From positions 1 through 51,967 of IMG/VR virus record IMGVR_UViG_3300044798_000130: DNA of 51,967 bases. One strand, given 5' to 3'. Position 1 is the first letter of the stretch. Every line of letters starts with the position of its first letter. Positions 4,499-41,424 of the stretch are shown here, piece by piece. A program made the position numbers and the translations under genes. The DNA is from a virus. Taxonomy: Duplodnaviria; Caudoviricetes. The notes below the pieces were generated by a model. The model ran no database searches, was not told the DNA's origin, and was given only the letters and a program-made list of their open reading frames with translations.

Positions 4499-4816
4499 AT
4501 GAGAACAGTCTACATATTGCTTGTAGCCATCGCCCTCATGGGCATGGCAAGTGCCGTTGAGCTGTCGAATAGCAACCTATCACTGTCCATCTTTCATGCC
4601 TACATGGAAGAGGATCTTGTGCCATCTGTGTCAGCCTTCCAGCCAGTGGTGGATGCCTGGAATGGCAGTCAAAACAAGGTAATTGGAGCCTTCGATTACT
4701 CCGAAGTGGCCGATATGACCAATTCGCTTGGCATGGGTGATCTGGTTAGGGTCGGGAACATGTCAGATGGCGAGGGACACTACCTGGATGGGACGAAGAA
4801 TTACATCCAACCTTAA
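4499..4816 (+). CDS. Small secreted protein
   Basis: Signal peptide MRTVYILLVAIALMGMASA; sequons NLS, NGS, NMS. Confidence 0.7.
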   Translation: MRTVYILLVAIALMGMASAVELSNSNLSLSIFHAYMEEDLVPSVSAFQPVVDAWNGSQNKVIGAFDYSEVADMTNSLGMGDLVRVGNMSDGEGHYLDGTKNYIQP

Positions 4817-4821
4817 TCTTT

Positions 4822-5193
4822 TTATTCATTCCAGACACGTTCGCAGCATTCTTCAAATTTTTGTTCCATAATAAACACCGCTGGCCTAATATGTGGCCTG
4901 AACCGCCAAATCTTTTTAGACTGCTTAGGTCCAAACTCCTGTGGCTCTCCGTAGTCCATGCCGTTGGCGAGAGTTATCTGATATCGGCATGGTCCGAGCC
5001 TGGCAACACTGCTTGCCGCTGGAATGCTGTCTTTCAGTGCCCCGGTATCCTTTAGGCAATTGGCATGAGCCACATTAATTCCCTCCACAAGCAACTGATT
5101 GGCCGCCTTCTCTGCTAGGGCATCCTGTTTTTGGATTTCGGCTATGATCTCTGCTTTTAGGCTAGAAATGTCTACTCTGAGATTAATCGTCAT
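4822..5193 (-). CDS. HK97 gp10-like neck/tail completion protein
   Basis: DTGALKDSI, YGEPQEFG, RPHIRPA motifs. Confidence 0.8.
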   Translation of the reverse strand: MTINLRVDISSLKAEIIAEIQKQDALAEKAANQLLVEGINVAHANCLKDTGALKDSIPAASSVARLGPCRYQITLANGMDYGEPQEFGPKQSKKIWRFRPHIRPAVFIMEQKFEECCERVWNE

Positions 5194-5972
5194 GCATATA
5201 GATCGACCAATGCCGCCTCCGTTGGATGTGGGTGGTCTGCTATGACTTTATCAAATCCGTATTCCAACCAGCACCTGCAATTGACCTCTTTCTCGGCTGG
5301 AAATTTCTGATAAATTGTGGTAGTCTTGCTAACTTTGCTTGCGAATTCGCCGCCCATTTCGATCTTGGTGCCGTTCAATGCTTGATGTGCTTTTCTGACT
5401 CTGGAATCACCCACAGTATGCCAGGTGGCTGTTGTAGCATCTGCCTTTCCCGCGAATTCATGGGCACCGCCTCTTATGGCCCGGCCTCTTTCAGTCCTTA
5501 TGATCGTTCTGGTCCTAAATCCAGAATTGTCCACAATTCCAGCCAGGTGAGGCTCCTTCAGGATTTGCCGTGCAAGTGGTCTTTCATTCATGCTGGAGTT
5601 CTGCCAGATGTAATTAGTAAGTTTGCGCTTGTCGGTTTGCACCATGCGCTTAATTAAATCGCCGCCCCTCTTCTCTATGTATTCTGTCGCGATCTCCCTA
5701 ACCGGGATGGCCTGCTTCTTGAGCCCATAGGTGGCAATGAACTTCTCTCCATTGCCTACCATTTCCGGTAAGAGCCACTTCTCCAAGATGCTCCAGACTT
5801 CAGCATTCTTGGCTTTGCTCGCTAAGAGATACTTCCTCATAGCCACCTGGTCCATGATATCCATAGGTTCATAAGGCCCCTCTAAATCGAAGTAACCCAC
5901 GCTTTGCAGATACTTGGTAATCTGAGGGCCAAATTTCTGCAAGATATCGTGGAGTTGGCGATCGGGTAGCAT
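5190..5972 (-). CDS. Head morphogenesis protein (MuF/SPP1 gp7-like)
   Basis: RTRTIIRTE, WHTVGDSRVRKAH, VNCRC motifs. Confidence 0.85.
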   Translation of the reverse strand: MLPDRQLHDILQKFGPQITKYLQSVGYFDLEGPYEPMDIMDQVAMRKYLLASKAKNAEVWSILEKWLLPEMVGNGEKFIATYGLKKQAIPVREIATEYIEKRGGDLIKRMVQTDKRKLTNYIWQNSSMNERPLARQILKEPHLAGIVDNSGFRTRTIIRTERGRAIRGGAHEFAGKADATTATWHTVGDSRVRKAHQALNGTKIEMGGEFASKVSKTTTIYQKFPAEKEVNCRCWLEYGFDKVIADHPHPTEAALVDLYA

Positions 5973-9354: not shown

Positions 9355-9945
9355 TCACCTCGTAGATGTCGAAATATCAGAACTATATGCAATACTGCCA
9401 AACGTTAGCTCGACCGCTCCACCCAAATAGCCTTTCATCAAGCGGTAAGCCTCCGAACTCAGGAGACCGTTGTGCTTCTCTGGGTTGGAAGCAGCCAATG
9501 TCTCTGAGTACACCCCGCCAAGGTTGTAAATCTGGACTCCCTGCTCTTTCATGGCTTGTCTATCGGTGTTGTCCGAGTCCGCGAAGAATTTGTAAAGAGC
9601 TATTGCCTCTTCACAGCAGGCATCTTTGACATTTTGTGGCACAATTGGCAGACCGGTATCCTCATCCCAATCATGCACCTTGCCGTCAATCACTCGCGGG
9701 AAGGCGAGTGCCTGCTCATCGGCATCAATTGTGGTATTTCTATTATAGATGTAATATGTCAGTCCGGCAAATGGCATAGCGTCTATTGTTTTTGTGGCTC
9801 TCGTCAGATACCAGGCCATGCCAGAAACGAGCGCCAGAAATGCAGTTGCTCTCGGATCGCCTGAGAAATATGCGCCCGCCGAGGCAACCGACACATACGA
9901 ATCGGTGGAGGCGGCAATTGGCGTTAGCGTCCCTGATCCACTCAT
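9355..9945 (-). CDS. Head-tail adaptor (DnaT-like family)
   Basis: DSYVSVASA..YF, ATKTID, QALAFPR, VPQNVKDACCE motifs. Confidence 0.75.
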   Translation of the reverse strand: MSGSGTLTPIAASTDSYVSVASAGAYFSGDPRATAFLALVSGMAWYLTRATKTIDAMPFAGLTYYIYNRNTTIDADEQALAFPRVIDGKVHDWDEDTGLPIVPQNVKDACCEEAIALYKFFADSDNTDRQAMKEQGVQIYNLGGVYSETLAASNPEKHNGLLSSEAYRLMKGYLGGAVELTFGSIAYSSDISTSTR

Positions 9946-10919
9946 GTAACCACCTCGGCATCTGCGATTGGCTCATCATAGTTGGGCGCAAATGCCAAGA
10001 TGTAATAGGTTCCTGGCACTAGGCGGAATGTGGCGATGCCTGCGCTGTTTGGGATCGCGGTTTTTTCTAATACAGTGCATGCCACGTCGGAATAAGCTTC
10101 TACCGTGGCTCCTGATATGGCAGCATGCGTGACAGAATTCGTGACTGCATAAGTCCAAGTCACTGATCCAACCGGATCAGAACCGGACGCAGCGATCGCG
10201 ATAAGTTGTGTACTGTTCGAATCGATCTCCTGGCGGATTTGTACCACGGTTGGGGCAAATCCTGCCTTGTCAGTCAGAGCGCGGGTTGTCTCGCTCCAAA
10301 CTTTTGTAGAGATCTCTTCTTTCGTTGGCGGAACCGCCGCCAATGTCATCACAGACCCGACCGCAGCGGGTGACGCCGGGAGGGCATTCACTTTCGCCAG
10401 AAAACCGGCGTGTGTGCCAATTGCCTCATCACAAACCGCGTCTGCAATATCTTCTTTGGTAGGTGGTGCCGTTGCCAGTGCAAAGCCGGTCTTGTCGGAA
10501 ACGGTGACAGAAGCCGCATTCAGACTGGCCTTTTGCAGAGCGCCAAAATCAATGTTGGCTTGCTCATTGACCGCTGCCGGAAGGTTGCCGCTCACATCAG
10601 CCGCCGCTATGGTAGCTGCATACTTCTGCCCGGCTGGCTCAGTCCAGAGAGCACCGGGGCAGCCTATGACAATGACGTTTGCGGTTGCAGATACCGGGAT
10701 GAGTAGCAGCATATTGCCGTTTGTTTCCACATCAGATATATCGAAATAATAGTAGCCATTGGAAAGCTCTGTCGGGTTGGTATCATCTACCGGTTTGGTG
10801 CTACCTCCATCGATTCGCAGATTGGCGGTGATGTTGGCGGCATCGCCCGTCACCGGGCTGCCGCTCGTGCGCCCGAACGCAAAGCAAATCCAGCGTTGTC
10901 CGGATGTGTTTTTTAACAT
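9942..10919 (-). CDS. Virion structural protein with repeats and C-terminal beta-sandwich
   Basis: Ala/Thr-rich; repeated LATAPPTKEDI / LAAVPPTKEEI and TDK.GFA; AISGATVEAY...LVPGTYYI. Confidence 0.6.
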   Translation of the reverse strand: MLKNTSGQRWICFAFGRTSGSPVTGDAANITANLRIDGGSTKPVDDTNPTELSNGYYYFDISDVETNGNMLLLIPVSATANVIVIGCPGALWTEPAGQKYAATIAAADVSGNLPAAVNEQANIDFGALQKASLNAASVTVSDKTGFALATAPPTKEDIADAVCDEAIGTHAGFLAKVNALPASPAAVGSVMTLAAVPPTKEEISTKVWSETTRALTDKAGFAPTVVQIRQEIDSNSTQLIAIAASGSDPVGSVTWTYAVTNSVTHAAISGATVEAYSDVACTVLEKTAIPNSAGIATFRLVPGTYYILAFAPNYDEPIADAEVVT

Positions 10920-10920
10920 C

Positions 10921-11688
10921 TCAAATACCCCCGGCCATTAAGCGCCGATAGTATTGTTGCGCTTTGGGCCCCGGCAGTGTCGCCAGCCCCGGAAACGGAT
11001 CGGTGTCGTACATGCAGTACGGGAAAGCATAGAGGTACGCAACTTCCTCGGCGGAGAGGGCGCGATTGTAGATCATAATACATCCGATCAATCCCAAAAA
11101 ACCCGTAGTGCCTCCACCGTCTTGATAATTTCCAATTCTCAGGACATTTGGTACATTTGGAATTGCTGTAACTACTGTTGGACTGCCAATACCATCTATG
11201 TATATCACGCCAACCGTGTCTTTCAACGTCCCGGCAATTTGATGAGATATTCCAATAGTGGGCGCTGGGATCCGGGACAATCCATCAAGCCCTCCACCTC
11301 TGAGCCATATTGTATTCATATAAACAAACAAAGTCGCATTAGAGTTTACCTCCGCCTTGCTAACAATGGTTTTGTTGACATTGTAATTGAGAGAATTGAC
11401 CCATGAAATAATAGTCATTTCTGTAGATCGCTGATCAAATGATGCAATTTTAATGAAGTTATTACTCCCGTTGAACGCCAGCGCACCCCCACGTGGCCCC
11501 GGCACCCACCCGCTCGTGGGCGTATCTTCTCCGAAGCCTATCTTTGTGCCGTGATTTTCATTTCCTGAAGAATCATGAACAGTTGGGCCGCCATTCTCAT
11601 TGAACAGATATGAGGCCACCAAGTTCTGCGATGCCCAATGATCGCGGTTGAGCGGCGTATTGTAGAGCGGCTTGCAGATACCAGACAT
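10921..11688 (-). CDS. LamG/concanavalin A-like domain protein
   Basis: LVASYLFNE.GG..V.DSSGN.NHGT, TIISWV, IYNRALSAEEV. Confidence 0.85.
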   Translation of the reverse strand: MSGICKPLYNTPLNRDHWASQNLVASYLFNENGGPTVHDSSGNENHGTKIGFGEDTPTSGWVPGPRGGALAFNGSNNFIKIASFDQRSTEMTIISWVNSLNYNVNKTIVSKAEVNSNATLFVYMNTIWLRGGGLDGLSRIPAPTIGISHQIAGTLKDTVGVIYIDGIGSPTVVTAIPNVPNVLRIGNYQDGGGTTGFLGLIGCIMIYNRALSAEEVAYLYAFPYCMYDTDPFPGLATLPGPKAQQYYRRLMAGGI

Positions 11689-11689
11689 C

Positions 11690-12055
11690 CTAAGATACCT
11701 CAGAAAGCTCGATGCCTTCCACCCTCAGCGTCACATTCTGCCCGGTATTGCTTCCAGCGGTCACTTTCGCATATTTCGCATAGACCGGCAACGGTGCTGG
11801 CCAGGAAGAGACAACATTATTTCCAAGCGCGGACCCATATGCACCGCCCTGCTTGTACCAATTTGAATTATCTGCACTCCACCAAACTTGAGCGATGGCA
11901 GCAACGGTCGGGCCGGTTGTACCGTTAGTGATCTTGATCCCCAGGCCCGCTTGATATCCGTCCTGCAAATCAAGCACAGAAGACGTATAATCGGCGGCAC
12001 CCGCGGTCAAGGTCACGTTATCGGCCAGAACAGTTACGACTTTTGTAGTTGCCAT
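11690..12055 (-). CDS. Small beta-rich virion protein
   Basis: All-beta pattern, SADNSNWY; late operon. Confidence 0.55.
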   Translation of the reverse strand: MATTKVVTVLADNVTLTAGAADYTSSVLDLQDGYQAGLGIKITNGTTGPTVAAIAQVWWSADNSNWYKQGGAYGSALGNNVVSSWPAPLPVYAKYAKVTAGSNTGQNVTLRVEGIELSEVS

Positions 12056-12056
12056 C

Positions 12057-12290
12057 TCATTTCACCCGGTTTGCGGTCGTGGTCATTGCTGCCGATATGG
12101 TTTTTTCTTTGGTCTGCCTACCACGCCATTTCAGGAGAGCGGCTTCGGCCAGGAGCATGAACTTTGGCCGGGCTTCCTCGGAGCAGAGGTGGCGAGCAGA
12201 GAAGGCGAACGTGCTGCCATCCGGCTCCATCCATGTGGCGGTGATGCTGCCGCAATCATCCTTGCCTTCATCCAGTTTTACTTCTATTAT
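12057..12290 (-). CDS. Hypothetical protein (start uncertain)
   Basis: ORF fills the gap between structural genes; CAGGAGG upstream. Confidence 0.4.
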   Translation of the reverse strand: MIEVKLDEGKDDCGSITATWMEPDGSTFAFSARHLCSEEARPKFMLLAEAALLKWRGRQTKEKTISAAMTTTANRVK

Positions 12291-12350
12291 CCAAGCCAAA
12301 TCAAAGCCTCCTGTAGTTTATTATTACTCCAAAAAAAATAATTAAGAGAA

Positions 12351-13550
12351 TCAAATCCTCTTCATTCGCACAGTCATGACGCCGCCTGCCAATGTGGTCA
12401 GAGTGCCGGAAAAGTCCAATGCAAGACGTTCGGTGCTGTTTACCTTGCATAAGCCGCTGCCCGTGGCGGGAGTGCTGCTTATGATGGTGTTGGCCGTTCC
12501 CTTCAGGTTCACAACTGCCTGAATTACCGCCGATCCCTGCGCCGGTGTCTGCGTGCCGGTGCATTTCGTTAGGGTCAGATTGACGGGACTTGCATCATTT
12601 CCGGCCACGGTATGTACTTCAGATACCGCCACAACCTGCCAGGATGAGGTAGGAACAAAGACATTGGTATCCACAGAAGCCGCGCTTATGGGCACATTGA
12701 AGTCCCAATATTGGGGAACGATGACGCCGCCCACTGTCAACTTATCGACGGTGGTTACTGCTAGGGATTTGTCGGTATATACAGTCGTATTGCCCTTCAG
12801 GACCACGGCACCGCCGCCGGTCGTGGTTGTGGTCAGGCCAGCACCTAAGATATTGCCATTGAAGGTATTCGTTCCTAGTGGCGAACTGTAACCGCCCGTC
12901 ATGGCCGAGAAATCAACCACGCCACTTCCAGAGAGCCCGGTCAGGCTCTTATTAGCAGCGATGGTGATATCTTCAAGGATCTTTAGCGCGCCGGTTGATG
13001 TGGTTATGCCGGCCGTGCCTACCGTGATGCCAGACGCGCCGGATTGAACCAGGCTATAGCCGCTATCCTGGGTTATGGCTTTGGTAGTCATTGCCCCATT
13101 GATGTCCACTGCGCCGGTTCCTGATGTGATCCCGCCCGATCCTTGCTGAGTCAGGTTATATCCAGAATCCTGGGTGATCGCGCGCGTGGTCGCTGCCCCG
13201 TTGATATCGATTATGCCGCCGATGGTGCCGGTCCCCGTTGGCATCTTCCAAGCACCAGTGGCATTGGACCAATCGATACCGCCGCTGCCAGTGGTTGAAT
13301 ATAGGGAATGGTTGGCCGCGAATCGCAGATTGCCATCATAGACGCCACCGTTTACGGTCCCGCCGGTGATAGTAGCAATTCCAGCAATGGTTACATCGCC
13401 ATCTATGAAGCTATCAGCATCTCCCACATCGAGCCCATGCCCGATGAGATAGCCGGCGGTGGAATAATTCTCACTCCGGGGATACCACTGAGCCCCGGTC
13501 AACCCGGACACTAGAACAAAGATTGCCAAAAAGATAAGAAGTTTTCTCAT
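12351..13550 (-). CDS. Signal-peptide-bearing Gly/Thr-rich protein with decoration-like C-terminal beta domain
   Basis: MRKLLIFLAIFVLVSGLTGA; tandem DINGA.TT.AITQDSGY repeat; immediately after MCP. Confidence 0.75.
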   Translation of the reverse strand: MRKLLIFLAIFVLVSGLTGAQWYPRSENYSTAGYLIGHGLDVGDADSFIDGDVTIAGIATITGGTVNGGVYDGNLRFAANHSLYSTTGSGGIDWSNATGAWKMPTGTGTIGGIIDINGAATTRAITQDSGYNLTQQGSGGITSGTGAVDINGAMTTKAITQDSGYSLVQSGASGITVGTAGITTSTGALKILEDITIAANKSLTGLSGSGVVDFSAMTGGYSSPLGTNTFNGNILGAGLTTTTTGGGAVVLKGNTTVYTDKSLAVTTVDKLTVGGVIVPQYWDFNVPISAASVDTNVFVPTSSWQVVAVSEVHTVAGNDASPVNLTLTKCTGTQTPAQGSAVIQAVVNLKGTANTIISSTPATGSGLCKVNSTERLALDFSGTLTTLAGGVMTVRMKRI

Positions 13551-13560
13551 CTTTTCAACC

Positions 13561-14571
13561 TCACGGCTTCAGGACAGCGAATGGGGATCTGCTCGCGGTT
13601 CCAGCGATGTCCACCGGTATGGGGCAGCACCAGCCTATTCGGCATGTGGCCTTCAGGAGAATAACATCCTGTTGCATTGCATTGATCAAGACAACCCCAG
13701 CTGCATCGGTGACCACGCCAGTATCCGTCATGGAAAGCTGAATATCCTGTCTCCATGCATAGAAGGCCTTCTTCCAGTTACCCGCGATCATCAGGGCAGT
13801 GCTGGCATCAAGGCTGTCATTCTGGAGGAAATTGACATCTACACCGGCGAGGGAATATTTCGGAGTTCCCTGACCATTTTCCTGTGCCCATAATGGTATG
13901 CCGTCAGAAGACCGTATGCCACGCATTACCGCCTTCTGGCTGAGATCGGCTACAATGCCATCCACGTTGTACCTCTTGCCCTCCACCAGGCCAAAGAGGC
14001 CACCTACGCCCAAAATGGCATCATACATGTCCACGAAGGTTTTGCCAGATCCGACGGAATCGGATTTGTCAATCACCATGCTATTGTCGGTGGCCGTATG
14101 ATAGATGCTGTCGGGGAAGGCAGCCGGTGCATTGGTATCATCCCACATCACGGCCTGGTCGAATTTACGGGCTATGGACTCGGCCAATCTGGGCTTGATT
14201 TCCGCCCACAGGTCGAAGCCATCTGCAAGATCTGCGATCATATCCTTGGGGATTGGGACCACAACGCCCATTTTCGCGGCGGTGATTGTCGAATTGGTCC
14301 AGCCCTGCTTCGTGGTCTGGAGAAGACCGCCAGCTACTTCGGGCGAGGTGCCGTCGCCTGCCTCAGTGTCCACCCAATAGGCTTCGGGATACAGGGACAT
14401 AACGGCCCGGCTCTCGATTTTGGTGGACATATTGGGCTCTCTCTTCATCAGGCCCATAATCGCGCTCTGCGTGATTGTTTCCTGGATCACACCCGGAACA
14501 TATTTCGGGTTGATCATGCCTGCCGTCACCAAACCGGATCGGGCCAATACTTCATCGTAAGTTGCTACCAT
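13561..14571 (-). CDS. Major capsid protein (HK97 fold)
   Basis: AYWV, AKMGVVVPI, LAESIARKFDQAV, DGIPLW, GNWKK, NAMQQD motifs. Confidence 0.92.
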   Translation of the reverse strand: MVATYDEVLARSGLVTAGMINPKYVPGVIQETITQSAIMGLMKREPNMSTKIESRAVMSLYPEAYWVDTEAGDGTSPEVAGGLLQTTKQGWTNSTITAAKMGVVVPIPKDMIADLADGFDLWAEIKPRLAESIARKFDQAVMWDDTNAPAAFPDSIYHTATDNSMVIDKSDSVGSGKTFVDMYDAILGVGGLFGLVEGKRYNVDGIVADLSQKAVMRGIRSSDGIPLWAQENGQGTPKYSLAGVDVNFLQNDSLDASTALMIAGNWKKAFYAWRQDIQLSMTDTGVVTDAAGVVLINAMQQDVILLKATCRIGWCCPIPVDIAGTASRSPFAVLKP

Positions 14572-14575
14572 ATTA

Positions 14576-15085
14576 TCATCTCGCGGTTGGGCTTCCCACG
14601 CCGGCCAACATCCTCAGAGCAGCATTCATTTCATCATTTTCTGTCTGTAGCTGCCCAGCAGTTACTGGCGGCACGGGCTTGCCCGCATCATGCTTGATCC
14701 CTAGCTTTTTCCGCAAGGCTTCGGCATGTGTCTTTAGGCTCGCTTCGTCCATGCCCTTCAGCTCCTCGATCCAATCAGCGGGGAGACCAGCTTCCTTGCC
14801 AATCTTCTGCCGGAGATCTCCGAGTTCGTAGCTTGTGAGCTTGGTTTTGAGTCCTTGGATCTCTGTTTGTGTTGTTCCAAGGGAGTTTTCCAAAGCGGCT
14901 GCCCGTTGCAGAGCACTTTCAAGCTCTGTCTTTGGGACATAATTTGCCAGCTTGCGGTTCAACGATGCCTGGTACTGCTGCTCAGTCTGGAAGACTTTGT
15001 AGGGACCGGGCGTATTCACTACAGGGTCCGCAATGGGAACGGCTGGAGTGGTTGGAGTGCTAGGGTCTTCTGTCATGGTAATCAA
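14576..15085 (-). CDS. Capsid scaffolding protein
   Basis: Coiled coil, GLPA...LKG.DE..LK..AE.L pattern; directly upstream of MCP. Confidence 0.75.
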   Translation of the reverse strand: MITMTEDPSTPTTPAVPIADPVVNTPGPYKVFQTEQQYQASLNRKLANYVPKTELESALQRAAALENSLGTTQTEIQGLKTKLTSYELGDLRQKIGKEAGLPADWIEELKGMDEASLKTHAEALRKKLGIKHDAGKPVPPVTAGQLQTENDEMNAALRMLAGVGSPTAR

Positions 15086-15297: not shown

Positions 15298-16659
15298 TCA
15301 TAACATCCCCCCTTGCATCGATTTCATTTCATCAGTTTCTGTAAGAATTTGTTTTTCTGTGAATCCTCTTTCCCTCATGATACCTTGCGGGCTACGTGCG
15401 CCGCCTGTAATCTTCATGGTGTCAATCTGAGCTTCCTCATAATCGTCATCTGGCAAGCCATCTTTCCATATGATGTCCAGGGACGTTAGCGGAACGGCGC
15501 CAGGTACCTTGTTCTTGACATCGAGAATCGAGATCGCTTCAAGAATATGCTTAAACACCGGATCATATTGCAACTTGCACCGCTCGGATTTCTTTAGCGG
15601 CCTCATCATGAGCATCCTCAGGGCCTTGCCGCTAATCGCATTTCCCAGCGTGTCCGGCTCAAAGGCGCATCTGCATGTCTCTGAAATGGTATATAGCTGG
15701 GTGAGCACCTTATCGATCAGAGTAAAAGATGCTACCAACTGTCCGTCCCATGTGATGTATTGAGGGACAGCATCGCCTTCGCCAATCGGGAAGACACGCC
15801 GCTTGGCATTATAGGCACGCTCGTTGGTGATGGGGTCTGGCGGGCCAAGGGCAGCATCAGGAACGGCGAACGCTGGCTCGCTGTGAGCATCTAGTGTCCT
15901 ACCAGATCGGGTGAAGGTGATCTCCAGTCGCTTGATCATCGGATCAATATCTTGATAATCATCCGTGCCGTAGATATCATCGGTGGTGCTTGCATTCAGT
16001 ATCGGGAATACCAGTGGCTCATCGAATCCCGTTTGGACTTCGACAATATCATAAGGATCTGATATGATTTCACCCTGGTCGGATAACGCAAACTTGCAAC
16101 TCCAGATAAGCCCGCCGCTATGGATCTCCACATCCAAGATTTTGTTATCAAGCGACCAAGCAATCACATGCCCGACCGCCTCACCATCCGGCCCAACCAC
16201 CGGCCACCAATTCTTAGGAGATACTATCTGAAGTTTGGCGGGCTTGCCCTCTTCTGCATAGACTTTTGCGACACCGGCACCGTATCGGCTCATATCGATT
16301 CTGGCAGCATAGGCTTTCGACCAGAGATTGAGCCTCGGAACTAGGGAATCCAGATAGATTTGCTCTGGTGTCGCGACCTCGCTTGTAGCGATTCCCACCT
16401 TCATGGTGGGCTTTTCAGATAGCAGAAGATCGGCCCAAAATGTGGATAGCTGCTTATGGAAGTTGATAATGAAAATGATTTTGTTGAAATCCTTCTCACG
16501 GTCAGCATACAGATTTTTGAGGATCGTATAGACCTCATCATGCTTGCGCTGCCATAGAAGAAGGTTATCGGCATAGATTTTGAGCCGATCCTTATCCTCG
16601 GCGGGCGGCCAAGGCTTACCGCGCATAAAATGCGATTGGAGATTGTCTGGAGTGATCAT
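15298..16659 (-). CDS. Portal protein (SPP1 gp6-like)
   Basis: INFHK, YGTDDY.DI, YITWDGQL, SGKALR, IWKDGLP motifs; follows TerL. Confidence 0.9.
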   Translation of the reverse strand: MITPDNLQSHFMRGKPWPPAEDKDRLKIYADNLLLWQRKHDEVYTILKNLYADREKDFNKIIFIINFHKQLSTFWADLLLSEKPTMKVGIATSEVATPEQIYLDSLVPRLNLWSKAYAARIDMSRYGAGVAKVYAEEGKPAKLQIVSPKNWWPVVGPDGEAVGHVIAWSLDNKILDVEIHSGGLIWSCKFALSDQGEIISDPYDIVEVQTGFDEPLVFPILNASTTDDIYGTDDYQDIDPMIKRLEITFTRSGRTLDAHSEPAFAVPDAALGPPDPITNERAYNAKRRVFPIGEGDAVPQYITWDGQLVASFTLIDKVLTQLYTISETCRCAFEPDTLGNAISGKALRMLMMRPLKKSERCKLQYDPVFKHILEAISILDVKNKVPGAVPLTSLDIIWKDGLPDDDYEEAQIDTMKITGGARSPQGIMRERGFTEKQILTETDEMKSMQGGML

Positions 16660-17948
16660 TAGTATGCCTTCCTGAATATTCTTCGCGCCGCATAACGTGT
16701 GGCGTCAAGCACATGGTCATCTTTTTTGATAGGTTTGTCTTCCCCAACCAGAGCCGCCTTAAGATCCCATGAGTAAGTTTGAATTTCCCCTATCAGATGC
16801 TTGCAGGATTCATGAATTAGCAACTTGCCGGAACTGAGCGCAGAAGCCACATCCATGATTCCAGCTTGAACTGCATTGTCAGCATCCTTCATATTCATCA
16901 GGCCATCGCGCTTGAATTGCACTTTCATAGGACTTGCTGAGGGATCGACTTCTATAGACGATGGATACCATTGACCGCCTTCTCTGGCCAGGAATGTTTT
17001 CATGTCCTTGGAGAATTCGAATGTGGTCTTCGCGACCATTTTCGTAGCATCGTGATAATATTCCTTCCATGCTATCCATTTGCCGGTATGTGGTCCAGTT
17101 GATGCCCGCCCGAGCATGATATATGTGGTTACTGAGGCTGCTCCGAAGTCCACCCCAACCACAAGATTGCTCCAAGAAGCTGGCAAATCATGAATAACAT
17201 GCTTGCTGATATCGAACATGTTATAGACCAGGCCTTCTGCTAGGCACCACTCGCCCAGGATGTAGCGACGATAGAATATTGATCCTTTGGACCAGCGCCT
17301 TTCGTATCTTTCTCTCGTTTTCTGACTGAGGGAGAGATTGTCATCCATCAGAAAATGTAGATGAAGGAGCTTCTTCTGGTCTAACTTCTGCAAATAATCG
17401 GTATTTATGTAATTGTACGGGCCGTCTGGGTTACAATTGTACCAGAACTTCGAATCCTCATCAGAACACCTGCCTTCTGCCTGGTTGACGAAAGATTGCG
17501 GCATAAGTGCAACTTCATCGAATAGGAATCCGCCCCCTGTAAATCCTTGCACGGGGTCTTGAGACTTTTCGTTGTTGCCACCGAAAAGATGAAACTGATT
17601 AGTACGCCTGCCCTTGGATATTTCCAGATGGGGCATTTCGGCACTTCTGTTATCTTTAACCTTATAGCCTCTTCCTGGCAAGACTTGTTTCAGCGGACCT
17701 ATAACGTTCCTTCGCAGGGCACCTAGGGTCTTACCTGCCATCCCTAGGTTGTGGCCATTATATGTCCGCATGGCCCATTCTACGTAGGCGGTTGACATTG
17801 GCAGCGTTTTGCCTGATCTTATCGCCCCATCCGCAATGATGCCATCGAAATCAGATACTTCGCTTTCAGGGAGCGTCCAATTCATTATCATCTTCTGTTT
17901 CTGGCTGAGTGGTTGCCAGGTGAACAGCGCGGGCGTCTTTCCAGTCAT
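16659..17948 (-). CDS. terL: Terminase large subunit (PBSX-like)
   Basis: GAIRSGKT Walker A, FLFDE Walker B, CNPDGP, GVDFG, DDHVLDATRY nuclease motifs. Confidence 0.95.
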   Translation of the reverse strand: MTGKTPALFTWQPLSQKQKMIMNWTLPESEVSDFDGIIADGAIRSGKTLPMSTAYVEWAMRTYNGHNLGMAGKTLGALRRNVIGPLKQVLPGRGYKVKDNRSAEMPHLEISKGRRTNQFHLFGGNNEKSQDPVQGFTGGGFLFDEVALMPQSFVNQAEGRCSDEDSKFWYNCNPDGPYNYINTDYLQKLDQKKLLHLHFLMDDNLSLSQKTRERYERRWSKGSIFYRRYILGEWCLAEGLVYNMFDISKHVIHDLPASWSNLVVGVDFGAASVTTYIMLGRASTGPHTGKWIAWKEYYHDATKMVAKTTFEFSKDMKTFLAREGGQWYPSSIEVDPSASPMKVQFKRDGLMNMKDADNAVQAGIMDVASALSSGKLLIHESCKHLIGEIQTYSWDLKAALVGEDKPIKKDDHVLDATRYAARRIFRKAY

Positions 17949-28034: not shown

Positions 28035-28244
28035 CTATTGACTATGATGATACATTGCCCGGCCCAATGGCACATAATCATCCCATTTTCCAGATGGCTT
28101 GATGCCAGTTGATACCCATTCGGTATATTGCTTTATCTGTCCGTCTTGTGTTTTGCAGAAGTTGGTTAGATCCGAATAGCTTCTGCATGCCGCCAATTGC
28201 TTCTCCGAGAAAAAAAAGAAGCCCCATTCATCGTTGTAATTCAT
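28035..28244 (-). CDS. Hypothetical protein
   Basis: GGTGAG RBS; early operon orientation. Confidence 0.5.
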   Translation of the reverse strand: MNYNDEWGFFFFSEKQLAACRSYSDLTNFCKTQDGQIKQYTEWVSTGIKPSGKWDDYVPLGRAMYHHSQ

Positions 28245-34932: not shown

Positions 34933-35062
34933 AGATATCATCTTTTTTTGACTGCCTACCTGCCTATCCCCCAATCTCATCACCCTCTTTGGATGGCCTA
35001 TTGCAACCAGGCATCGATAACTATTTATAGTCATAGTGTAATGACTATGTGGTGATAATGCA

Positions 35063-35215: not shown

Positions 35216-36031
35216 ATGGAAAAGGATATATTCGTGATAGATTCGAAGAAGCTGCGAAAGTTCTTTGAAATTCTCGCGGCATTGACAGATGAAGTCAAAT
35301 TGCAAATAAATCATGAAGGAAACGTTTTCTACGCATCGGTAGTAGATCCGGCGAACGTTGCCCTGTGCGAAGTTTCCATATCAGGAGTCCACTTTGAAAA
35401 GTCGTCGTCGGTCGTCCGAGATGTTGGGCTCGATGTTTCCGACGCGATGAAAATGCTCAATTGCTTCAAGTCCAAATATGCGCAGCCGGTGACGCTGGCA
35501 ATCGAGCAATTGGAAAAGGGGAATATTCCGCAATACTTCCTGGGCGGCTGGAAGTTCAATATACCGGAAATTTCCCCATGCGTCGAACTGTCTCATCACA
35601 TCATAGATCCTTCTGCGATCCGAAAAGAACCAAAAATACCGGCCATTGACTTTGAAATAGACATGAAGATCCCGGCATTGGTACTACATGATGTCGTTAA
35701 GACCATCAAAGCGACCGGATGCAATCAAATGGCCATCAAGACCAATGCCACCCACTTAGTATTCACGACCGAAACAAACGAGAACGATGGCCAAAAGATG
35801 AACTACTCCATAGATCGCAATGCGTTGCTCGATGAAAGTACCAACAAAGAGGATGCCAGATCTATATTCTCAATGGAATATTTTGGGGATATGATAAAAT
35901 CCATTCCGAAAGATTGCTTGGTAAGAATGCGGTTTGGGCGGGATTATCCGGTTAGACTGGATTTTGAGCCATTTGGGAACGGATTCAACTGCATGTTCAC
36001 ATTGGCTCCGAGGATAGAACAAGAAAATTGA
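35216..36031 (+). CDS. pcn: DNA sliding clamp (archaeal PCNA)
   Basis: VDPANVAL, SIFSMEYF.DMIK, GRDYPVRLDF, FTLAPRIE. Confidence 0.92.
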   Translation: MEKDIFVIDSKKLRKFFEILAALTDEVKLQINHEGNVFYASVVDPANVALCEVSISGVHFEKSSSVVRDVGLDVSDAMKMLNCFKSKYAQPVTLAIEQLEKGNIPQYFLGGWKFNIPEISPCVELSHHIIDPSAIRKEPKIPAIDFEIDMKIPALVLHDVVKTIKATGCNQMAIKTNATHLVFTTETNENDGQKMNYSIDRNALLDESTNKEDARSIFSMEYFGDMIKSIPKDCLVRMRFGRDYPVRLDFEPFGNGFNCMFTLAPRIEQEN

Positions 36032-37429: not shown

Positions 37430-37651
37430 TTACATCTGCCTTTCATCTCTTCCATATAGATCAGTGCTCCATGTAATTACCCACACCGTGCCATTCCCGG
37501 TCCAATTGCCGCTACCAATCTCTATTATGGTTTCATTTGTCCCATTCCCAATAGCATTGCCGGAAACAGATAGCTCCATGCCAGTAGATAGCCCAATTAG
37601 CAGGAGCAAAAATATGGCAAGCAACTCCACCAATGCCATCCCTTCCACCAA
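37430..37651 (-). CDS. Small secreted sequon-rich protein
   Basis: Hydrophobic LLAIFLLLLIGLSTG; sequons NGT, NET, NWT, NGT. Confidence 0.55.
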   Translation of the reverse strand: MVEGMALVELLAIFLLLLIGLSTGMELSVSGNAIGNGTNETIIEIGSGNWTGNGTVWVITWSTDLYGRDERQM

Positions 37652-39909: not shown

Positions 39910-41424
39910 CTACTCAGGAACCCCATTGTGATAATTGCCTGTTGATATTGTCCCGGTCGCCAAATCGCGTAAACCCACAGTCGTGTTAAACATCCGATTA
40001 TATCGGACTGAATTATTTAATCCGGCTGTTAAATAAATATTCGAGTCGGACGAACTTCTAAAGGTATTAAAATCAATTGCGTTTTCCGAAAACCCCGTTG
40101 GAGTAGTAGCTAACACTAAAATACCAACCTCTCCATTATCAATCATGTTGTGGTTGATATCCCATCGGTTGATCCTTTCATAATCAGTACTACCAACCGA
40201 CTGAAAAAGCATTGCATAATTCGGTGCAGTTGCATTCAGATTGCGAATGTCACAATTGGAAATTCTACCTCCGGTCAATGGCAACCCCTCTCCTCGTACC
40301 CATAACGCGACCCCCATAAATTGTCCTTGAGTCGCTATGTAACTACCAATTATCGACGGAGAATTGCATCCATGTAGCTTAACAGGCAATTCATCATTGT
40401 CGATCATGCACCCAATTATTGTGGGCGTGTCAATATATTGGAGCAAAATGCCATAATAGCATGATATAAAGGTGGAATCTACGATACGTATCCCGTATGC
40501 ATAGACAGATCGATCGGTGCGACCAGTGGCATAGATTCCGTGGTGTAAACTAACAAAATAGTTATTGGCCCACCCACAATTCCCATAATATGAAAACGCA
40601 TTTAACAGCTCGGCGCGAATCCCGACTGCGGTATTTGACGGGTTGTTACGGGCATCGTTCGGCCCCATCAACATATTATGACTTATATCGATACCTTCCA
40701 ATGCACTCAAATGAATGAGTGTGCCGGTACCCGCTTCTGATGTAAGAACGTTATGATCTATCTGCCAGTATAACATGTTTGGTGCGTGCGCCGCCTTGGA
40801 ACTATTTGTCCAGACTTCGACGCCCGTATTGGTGCCCGTCACATTGATACCCATTTCAGTTATATGCCAACGTACGGAAGGAATTTCGGATATGTTGATC
40901 AGTGGATTTACAGAACCCCGAACGCCAGTGGTGGGGCCATTGCCGGCCAGAACAACAGTATGATTTAATTGCAATGACGTAGATATATCAAACATATTAC
41001 ATAATTCTACTTTTCCTCCGAGGTTTAAGGCCGCTTGGATAGCGGTTGAATTACTGGAACTAATCGATAATGGCCAACCGTCTGCCCGCAGTGCCACGGC
41101 TCGTTGCAATCCCAACCAAGGCACCGTGAACAGGAACACTCTGGACGATGTTTGCGGAGCGAGTTGGCCGGATTGAACATATCCACTGTAGGATACGTTT
41201 CCACCCGGTTGCAAAAGTTGCGAATATGTCACCGCGTCCTGCTTCGCCGTGCCATTTACTACGTCATGGATCTGGGTATAAACATGATCGGTCCAATTGT
41301 AAGTAATGTTGATCGGACCGCCTGCAAATTCGGACCAATCGATTTGCGTCGACGCATCCAGTTTTACGGCACCCACGCCGCTTATAAGCAGCGCCAGTGA
41401 TAATAGAATAATAATAAATTTCAT
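39910..41424 (-). CDS. Signal-peptide-bearing parallel beta-helix protein (tailspike/pectin-lyase-like)
   Basis: MKFIIILLSLALLISGVGA; QDAVTYSQL neck; STAIQAALN cap; repeated I..N/GI strands; 12 N-X-S/T sequons. Confidence 0.8.
   Translation of the reverse strand: MKFIIILLSLALLISGVGAVKLDASTQIDWSEFAGGPINITYNWTDHVYTQIHDVVNGTAKQDAVTYSQLLQPGGNVSYSGYVQSGQLAPQTSSRVFLFTVPWLGLQRAVALRADGWPLSISSSNSTAIQAALNLGGKVELCNMFDISTSLQLNHTVVLAGNGPTTGVRGSVNPLINISEIPSVRWHITEMGINVTGTNTGVEVWTNSSKAAHAPNMLYWQIDHNVLTSEAGTGTLIHLSALEGIDISHNMLMGPNDARNNPSNTAVGIRAELLNAFSYYGNCGWANNYFVSLHHGIYATGRTDRSVYAYGIRIVDSTFISCYYGILLQYIDTPTIIGCMIDNDELPVKLHGCNSPSIIGSYIATQGQFMGVALWVRGEGLPLTGGRISNCDIRNLNATAPNYAMLFQSVGSTDYERINRWDINHNMIDNGEVGILVLATTPTGFSENAIDFNTFRSSSDSNIYLTAGLNNSVRYNRMFNTTVGLRDLATGTISTGNYHNGVPE

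Follow-up and report, generated by a model that had tools for sequence, protein, structure and literature searches.

The stretch of DNA analysed here (the window) is the whole of IMG/VR virus record IMGVR_UViG_3300044798_000130, a linear tailed-virus sequence (Duplodnaviria; Caudoviricetes) of 51967 bases with an estimated completeness of 91%. Directly behind its major capsid protein gene lies an open reading frame (ORF) of 399 amino acids (12351..13550, minus strand), which we refer to as the fibre gene. We propose that its product is a trimeric head fibre that is exported, probably N-glycosylated, and added to capsids at or after cell lysis. We give this reading a probability of roughly 45%, and we infer virion attachment, cleavage and glycosylation from the patterns of sequence and modelled structure described below.

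The fibre gene encodes a conserved signal-like N-terminus

The ATG of the fibre gene lies 10 nt past the TGA of the capsid gene (13561..14571, minus strand), which was identified as a member of the HK97 fold family by Pfam (Phage_capsid, E 2.5e-13) and PHROGs (phrog_10, major head protein, E 3.1e-29); the fibre gene thus stands directly after the major capsid gene, as the initial annotation of the window had stated. A GAGGT ribosome-binding site, read from the sequence (13558..13562, minus strand), precedes the ATG by 7 nt and overlaps the capsid stop codon. In the public protein collection, the product of the window is present solely as a 297-aa call from Met103 (P0001), in which the signal is missing. 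Its homologue P0002 is 71% identical to the long form over 100% of the query, and the N-terminus of the long form is common to P0008, P0050 and others. Because residues 1-102 are conserved as protein in P0002, P0008 and P0050 and a GAGGT site stands before the upstream ATG, these comparisons support the 399-aa form as the real product and the upstream start as the conserved one, against the downstream start that the initial annotation had named as a possible refutation of its view.

Residues 1-20 (MRKLLIFLAIFVLVSGLTGA; 13491..13550, minus strand) have the n-, h- and c-regions of a signal peptide with predicted cleavage after Ala20: MRK, with a charge of +2, is followed by 14 hydrophobic residues (LLIFLAIFVLVSGL) and then by T-G-A, after which the mature protein would begin with QWYP. 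The maximum Kyte-Doolittle mean over 10 residues in this region is 3.62. By feature count the stretch has what is expected for Sec export and signal peptidase I, namely a charged n-region, an h-region of 7-15 residues and small uncharged residues at -3 and -1; the signal was judged by this count and by its conservation in homologues. In the full-length AlphaFold model (mean pLDDT 71), residues 2-18 form a helix that is followed by a low-confidence linker (residues 19-39).

Conservation of the signal in homologues, which had been suggested as a check on the claim of a clear Sec-type signal, bears that claim out. The same three-part N-terminus (charged n-region, hydrophobic h-region, A-x-A type site) was present in 39 of 55 non-self homologues, while 15 were without it and one was truncated at its 5' end; among another 135 representatives (50% identity) of the C-terminal domain, a signal was present in at least 36. 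Downstream of the predicted site the residues vary by subgroup (QWYP, AWYP, VTIT, APQPQ, VMWD), and small residues at -3 and -1 are retained. The signal-less relatives P0018, P0022, P0024, P0027 and P0028 start with M(T/A)D(F/P)VTIT, the very sequence that stands directly after the predicted cut in P0011 and P0023, which bear a signal (...VGA|VTITD). The target's own mature N-terminus, QWYP, differs from that of the VTIT group; the signal-less protein of locus L031 starts with MSYYPRQDYT, which by eye is near the target's QWYPRS motif, in a short stretch that BLAST left unaligned. Since signal-less relatives start where signal-bearing ones are predicted to be cut, the sequences indicate that the signal is gained or lost inside one family with the mature end unchanged.

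Many homologues occupy the slot between capsid gene and head-tail adaptor

We examined which genes surround the homologues in related loci. In 10 loci the gene upstream of the homologue, with or without a signal, was a capsid gene, whereas in two loci the homologue followed tail genes. The capsid genes were recognised by blastp to the capsid protein of the window in L005 (48% identity), L016 (51%), L019 and L021 (33-34%), and L031 and L034 (35%), and by family in L004 (phrog_29), L012 (phrog_4523), and L017 and L030 (Pfam SU10_MCP, E 5.7e-40 and 4.3e-19, respectively). A head-tail adaptor gene came after the homologue in L005, L016, L017, L018 and L020. The signal-less P0027 (L017) occupies this same capsid-to-adaptor slot, and L030 encodes a signal-bearing relative with the same N-terminal part and another C-terminal domain. 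The count leaves out L006/L007 and L008-L011, in which a protease gene is followed by one or two small ORFs, a 310-327-residue ORF that the libraries do not name and then the homologue, as well as the loci of P0022 (L013-L015), which are too GC-rich for simple ORF picking, and loci that are too short or unreadable. A scan of viral contigs for P0021 found no locus. In L006 (7541..8248) and L007 (2892..3599), a second signal-bearing ORF of 235 aa (MLMMRIIALLFAVALIGISSG...) directly follows the 634-aa signal-bearing fibre gene; it had no PHROG match.

The mature protein is predicted to be a stalked fibre with a trimeric jelly-roll domain

The predicted mature protein has three parts. The conserved N-terminal part (residues 21-113, beginning QWYPRSENYS; 13212..13490, minus strand) is common to relatives that carry other C-terminal domains (P0005, P0017, P0026, P0030, P0035, P0050). 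It is followed by a Gly/Thr-rich stalk (residues 114-262; 12765..13211, minus strand), recognised by its composition and repeats, for which the monomer model (pLDDT 53-81) shows nothing of regular secondary structure. The composition of the mature protein (15.0% Gly, 15.3% Thr, 9.0% Ser) and two 32-aa repeats within the stalk (residues 114-145 and 148-179, 13116..13211 and 13014..13109, minus strand; 22 of 32 positions identical) agree with the Gly/Thr repeat stalk that had been described before; at the DNA level no tandem repeat was found in the fibre gene. The third part is a well-modelled terminal beta domain (residues 263-399; 12354..12764, minus strand).

The signal, N-terminal part and stalk of the target recur in P0005, P0017, P0019, P0026, P0030, P0035, P0043-P0045, P0050 and P0054, joined there to C-terminal domains of at least three other types; P0045 also has a YadA_stalk match. 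These combinations show that the fibre family is modular, like receptor-binding fibres. No domain common to the fibre protein and the tail proteins of the window was found (blastp, E <= 1).

Modelled alone (residues 250-399, 62 sequences), the C-terminal domain is an all-beta jelly-roll with a pLDDT of 93.9 and a pTM of 0.85. Its model was compared by VIA-align with 48161 solved chains, and cement proteins were among the best matches, which would suit the earlier description of a decoration-like beta domain. The best match was the trimeric cement protein of Helicobacter phage KHP40 (7dou_4, Z 8.2, rmsd 3.3, 112 aligned residues), followed by the GP4 capsid chain 8h89_J (Z 7.5), Pam1 7eel_H (Z 7.5), VP1 9in6_c (Z 7.3) and the BPP-1 jelly-roll cement protein 3j4u_H (Z 6.8), all of which are to be read against the tool's own statement that Z 7-8 is the usual best value when there is no true match. 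The domain is also predicted to form a homotrimer: as a model only, the trimer scored 0.96 (runs 0.96, 0.96 and 0.93) compared to 0.00 for the best of three controls, at least 85% of contacts agreed between runs, and partner pLDDT was at least 88. The mark applied to the trimer was reached by 20 of 30 proteins solved as same-chain pairs and by one of 23 solved as single chains, counts that are rough for this purpose (the target had its own alignment and three copies), and resemblance to solved jelly-roll trimers may raise the score. In addition, natural proteins of about 445 aa carry three tandem copies of the domain.

A search of 1.84 billion representatives with residues 250-399 yielded 988 proteins at E <= 0.001 (50%-identity representatives), in which the domain occurs in stand-alone form (130-170 residues), on stalks, or as the three-copy tandem. 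In P0187 a Phage_cement_2 domain (E 1.3e-20; phrog_122 head decoration, E 2.2e-18) lies N-terminal to a jelly-roll of the target type. The occurrence of the jelly-roll in stand-alone form and its likeness to cement proteins speak for the C-terminal trimer as the base of the fibre; the cement-plus-jelly-roll fusion and the matches to fibre tips speak for a displayed knob. Of the two, we prefer a jelly-roll that binds the capsid.

Signal-bearing proteins have an excess of sequons in the jelly-roll

The target contains the eight N-X-S/T sequons that the initial annotation had counted (N28, N80, N96, N132, N200, N254, N324 and N371). Among whole proteins, 75 signal-bearing members had 491 sequons compared to 296 expected from shuffles (1.66-fold), and 116 signal-less members had 402 compared to 337 expected (1.19-fold). 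The reversed motif, Q-x-S/T, D-x-S/T and N-x-A/G were unenriched in the signal-bearing set. For whole proteins at the level of 50%-identity representatives, the difference in sequons between members with and without a signal had a Mann-Whitney p of 1.6e-5, and the reversed motif was without effect; since the sequences are related, such p-values, and the z-scores, overstate independence.

The count was then made by domain for proteins in which a single C-terminal jelly-roll follows a stalk of 100 residues or more, other architectures being excluded; this gave 43 signal-bearing and 20 signal-less proteins, with the truncated P0025 counted among the latter. In the jelly-roll, the signal-bearing proteins had 112 sequons compared to 58.9 expected (1.90-fold), whereas the signal-less ones had 22 compared to 20.2 expected (1.09-fold). 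The stalk behaved otherwise: its excess was alike with a signal (1.37-fold) and without (1.48-fold), so part of the sequon excess is structural, a property of the stalk, and for this reason the whole-protein excess was partly rejected as evidence for glycosylation. A jelly-roll sequon density that is about doubled with a signal fits the pattern expected from selection for N-glycosylation of an exported protein.

The fibre gene had further been linked to a glycosyltransferase and to the gene at 39910..41424 in a joint system of virion maturation outside the cytoplasm. Among window ORFs of at least 100 aa, no glycosyltransferase was found by Pfam, PHROGs or NCBIfam (the last run on 24 ORFs). The ORF at 39910..41424 (minus strand; 504 aa) is the last gene of the tail row. 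Its product begins with a signal-like stretch (MKFIIILLSLALLISGVGA), matches NosD/beta-helix families and contains 12 sequons compared to 7.2 expected (p = 0.04). As the link to this gene rests on its signal and sequon excess and no glycosyltransferase was found, the joint system is not borne out. The 39910..41424 product may be a tail spike with a signal, or else an enzyme that is exported and degrades the envelope. A third signal-like N-terminus (MRTVYILLVAIALMGMASA) was seen in a 105-aa ORF (4499..4816, plus strand) on the opposite strand inside the structural block, with three sequons compared to 0.9 expected and no family match in Pfam, PHROGs or NCBIfam.

The host is very probably an archaeon

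The main evidence on the host is an archaeal-type PCNA sliding clamp encoded at 35216..36031 (plus strand). Against PDB sequences, phmmer aligned it over its full length with archaeal PCNAs (3hi8_A, E 5.3e-17; 1rwz_A, E 4.6e-15), whereas eukaryotic PCNAs gave E values near 1. NCBIfam sliding-clamp models also matched, the best being NF002222 (E 3.5e-38, below the curated cut-offs), and the nearest ESM Atlas clusters were PCNA families at 0.96; Pfam missed the protein at E <= 0.01. To our knowledge, tailed viruses that carry a PCNA are archaeal viruses. The sequence therefore makes an archaeal host very probable, which in turn makes glycosylation by a host AglB route conceivable. Phages of Gram-positive bacteria have terminases (46-48% identity) and capsid proteins (about 30%) similar to those of the window, and a Gram-positive host was considered on this ground and judged the weaker inference beside the PCNA. 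A genome scan for relatives gave only three distant matches, all in records labelled bacterial. The genome that contains L003 has no ribosomal protein L15e, so this relative lies in a bacterial bin or on a mis-binned phage contig. A promoter and terminator scan (35 sigma-70 sites compared to 25.3 +/- 4.8 in shuffles; 20 terminator-like sites compared to 18.1) was undecisive for the host.

A proposed extracytoplasmic route and its alternatives

In the route that we propose, the fibre protein would be made together with the capsid protein, probably from one transcript. A T8 tract (12331..12338, minus strand) lies 13 nt past the fibre-gene stop codon and is a possible archaeal-type terminator of the capsid transcription unit; should the capsid transcript end here, this would agree with expression at the level of the capsid protein. 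Runs of at least seven T are rare in the window, with two on the minus strand (12331..12338 and 28210..28217) and two on the plus strand (one of them 34943..34949), and the tracts at 12331..12338 and 34943..34949 each lie just past a gene end, as expected of archaeal oligo-T terminators; the terminator scan listed no hairpin-type terminator at 12331..12338. The protein would then leave the cell by Sec export through its cleavable N-terminal signal, be cut after Ala20, and probably be N-glycosylated outside the membrane by the host oligosaccharyltransferase. Once folded, it would be a trimeric fibre with a trimer of jelly-rolls, similar to phage cement proteins, at its C-terminal end; it would meet DNA-filled capsids only at cell lysis, and would bind them then. 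Decoration proteins can bind after assembly, as lambda gpD, T4 Hoc and Soc, and phage L Dec do. Signal-less relatives in the capsid-to-adaptor slot would be added inside the cell. The analysis itself shows the gene and its start, a conserved signal-like N-terminus, the slot, the fold and the pattern of sequons; from these we infer export, cleavage, glycosylation, the trimer in vivo, capsid binding and the end that binds.

Several observations weigh against this route. Taken alone, the target's eight sequons do not differ significantly from the 4.9 +/- 1.8 in shuffles (p = 0.07), and the excess in the stalk is independent of the signal. Signal-bearing relatives also occur in bacterial records (L004, in an acidobacterial record labelled Pyrinomonadaceae bacterium), where general N-glycosylation is not expected, so glycosylation is not the sole reason for export. 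VIA-align scores similar to those of the cement proteins were obtained for the tail-fibre tip 9rkv_M (Z 7.6), XepA (Z 7.4) and carbohydrate-binding modules (Z 6-7); Z 7-8 is within background for these models and jelly-rolls are common, and the fold alone proves little. The jelly-roll of P0187 is distal to the cement domain, an arrangement that would suit an anchor and a displayed knob equally. The fibre protein matches nothing in Pfam (including Phage_cement_2, PF09956), PHROGs (including phrog_122) or NCBIfam, and tblastn gave no match of the target, or of P0052 and P0049, among 50,697 GenBank phage records. Finally, the homologues in L003 and L023 come after tape-measure and baseplate-like genes rather than a capsid gene.

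This last arrangement touches on the main rival to the head fibre, in which the protein is exported and never joins the virion, acting instead on the envelope of the infected cell. There it could mask receptor or S-layer glycans, and so block superinfection and keep progeny from adhering to debris, or it could assist in opening the envelope at egress. Any exported protein would suit the signal and the pattern of sequons, the L003 homologue adjoins a 73-aa membrane-like ORF, the fold is like that of XepA (Z 7.4) and YomS (Z 7.3) from Bacillus prophage lysis cassettes, and the window has other signal-bearing ORFs, at 39910..41424 and 4499..4816. However, signal-less homologues with the same mature N-terminus, such as P0027 in the same slot of L017, cannot act at the surface before lysis, P0187 fuses the domain to a cement domain, and among the loci with an identified upstream gene the 10 capsid-gene neighbours stand against two tail-gene neighbours. 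We consider an envelope protein unlikely, while taking it seriously.

A purely cytoplasmic head fibre, with a hydrophobic N-terminus that serves as a structural or membrane-contacting tip and not as a secretion signal, would agree with the established assembly of tailed virions in the cytoplasm and with the signal-less relatives in the same slot. It is improbable given that 39 of 55 homologues preserve the n/h/c layout, with its small residues at -3 and -1, despite differing downstream residues (QWYP, VTIT, APQPQ, VMWD), that the jelly-roll is enriched in sequons in signal-bearing forms only, and that a low-confidence linker follows the helix in the model. A true product starting at Met103, with the signal-like stretch untranslated, would match the sole database entry (P0001) and is highly improbable in view of the protein-level conservation of residues 1-102 in P0002 (71%, full coverage), P0008, P0050 and others, the GAGGT ahead of the upstream ATG, and an ORF that begins 10 nt after the capsid gene.

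Returning to the exported head fibre, the picture drawn in the initial annotation is retained in its signal, probable archaeal host, decoration-like domain and slot, and finds support in the upstream start and the jelly-roll sequons. It gives way on the glycosyltransferase, and the sequon excess of the stalk is not specific to signal-bearing proteins.

Comparison with known systems and significance

As modelled, the target's C-terminal domain is similar to jelly-roll cement proteins (Helicobacter phage KHP40, 7dou; cyanophage Pam1, 7eel chain H; Bordetella phage BPP-1, 3j4u chain H) in having one jelly-roll of some 120-140 residues (Z 8.2, 7.5 and 6.8, within the background range), in its predicted trimer and in a gene that adjoins the capsid gene; the target family includes stand-alone relatives of 130-150 aa. 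No sequence similarity to the cement proteins was found (profiles A1 and A2 gave nothing significant against PDB sequences). The target also has a stalk (about 240 residues) and a secretion signal, neither of which is known from solved cement proteins.

Like head fibres and outward decoration proteins (phi29 gp8.5, T4 Hoc, HFTV1 turrets), the target would be an elongated accessory protein whose gene lies close to that of the capsid; it is probably a trimer and probably adhesive. We know of no report of a signal peptide in phi29 gp8.5 or T4 Hoc. In phi29 gp8.5 the capsid base is at the N-terminus, so that its domain order differs from that favoured for the target. The capsid turrets of the archaeal virus HFTV1 have a carbohydrate-binding module, and a role in initial contact with host glycans has been proposed for them; one mention of 'signal' in that article concerns image signal (PMC12494034). 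We know of no report of a signal peptide for these turrets. Turrets with this proposed function make an adhesive head appendage plausible in archaeal viruses.

Phage proteins exported by Sec are known outside the virion, among them signal-bearing endolysins and lipoproteins such as T5 Llp. These likewise have an N-terminal Sec-type signal on a phage-encoded protein, but they are lysis or exclusion proteins from lysis or early regions and not fibres from the capsid-to-adaptor slot, and signal-less homologues in that slot are not known for them. XepA and YomS (6i56 and 6i5o), from Bacillus subtilis prophage lysis cassettes, are late-operon, extracellular beta-sandwiches of similar size (Z 7.4 and 7.3). 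They are described as pentamers (PMC6834076), unlike the trimer predicted for the target, they lie in a lysis cassette, where the fibre gene of the window has capsid and head genes for neighbours, and they have no sequence match to the target. XepA also appears in a paper on secretion without signal peptides (PMC1266369).

A full-text search, within the text it reached, returned no paper on the export of a decoration or head-fibre protein in tailed viruses, and a secreted route for a head part seems not to have been described for tailed viruses. Textbook assembly of these viruses is wholly cytoplasmic. We tentatively suggest, at a strength slightly below that of the proposal for the fibre itself, that some tailed viruses, archaeal and apparently bacterial, finish their heads outside the cytoplasm with a secreted, envelope-modified fibre (N-glycosylated in archaea) that is snapped on at lysis. 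If so, virions could carry host-type N-glycans that are unavailable to cytoplasmic assembly, with a bearing on recognition or evasion of S-layer glycoproteins and on particle stability, and lysis would also be a maturation step. Repeated gain and loss of the signal within the family would then mark switches between an inside and an outside route. Such proteins would escape gene callers and annotators for whom structural proteins are cytoplasmic, just as the public call of the fibre gene drops the signal. With 988 representatives, absence from Pfam and PHROGs and no match in the GenBank phage collection searched by tblastn, the jelly-roll thus belongs to a large, widespread and uncharacterised capsid-adjacent module.

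Other features of the window

The minus strand of the window carries a tailed-virus morphogenesis block, assigned by ORFs, Pfam and PHROGs. It comprises the large terminase (16659..17948), portal (15298..16659) and scaffold (14576..15085) genes, the capsid and fibre genes, and a head-tail adaptor gene (9355..9945) that is separated from the fibre gene by five genes. The tape-measure gene runs to the right end of the record and a tail-chaperone gene lies at its left end; the record is therefore circularly permuted.

In the interval between the fibre gene and the adaptor (9942..12299, minus strand), the window has four extra genes, which encode proteins of 80 aa, 121 aa, 255 aa (Laminin_G_3/ConA-like, E 1.2e-13) and 325 aa, and given these the virus may have further head appendages. 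The same interval in the relatives L005 and L016 holds only a small ORF, with an HNH endonuclease gene in addition in L005. A Mu F-like head morphogenesis gene (5190..5972, minus strand; Pfam Phage_Mu_F, E 4e-10) stands with connector and tail genes and not beside the portal gene, from which it is separated by about 9 kb in the downstream direction of the coding strand. No endolysin or integrase was recognised in window ORFs of at least 100 aa (Pfam and PHROGs on all of these, NCBIfam on 24). A 73-aa ORF (37430..37651, minus strand) has a strongly hydrophobic segment and four sequons compared to 0.9 expected, and its product could be a holin-like or other small membrane protein.

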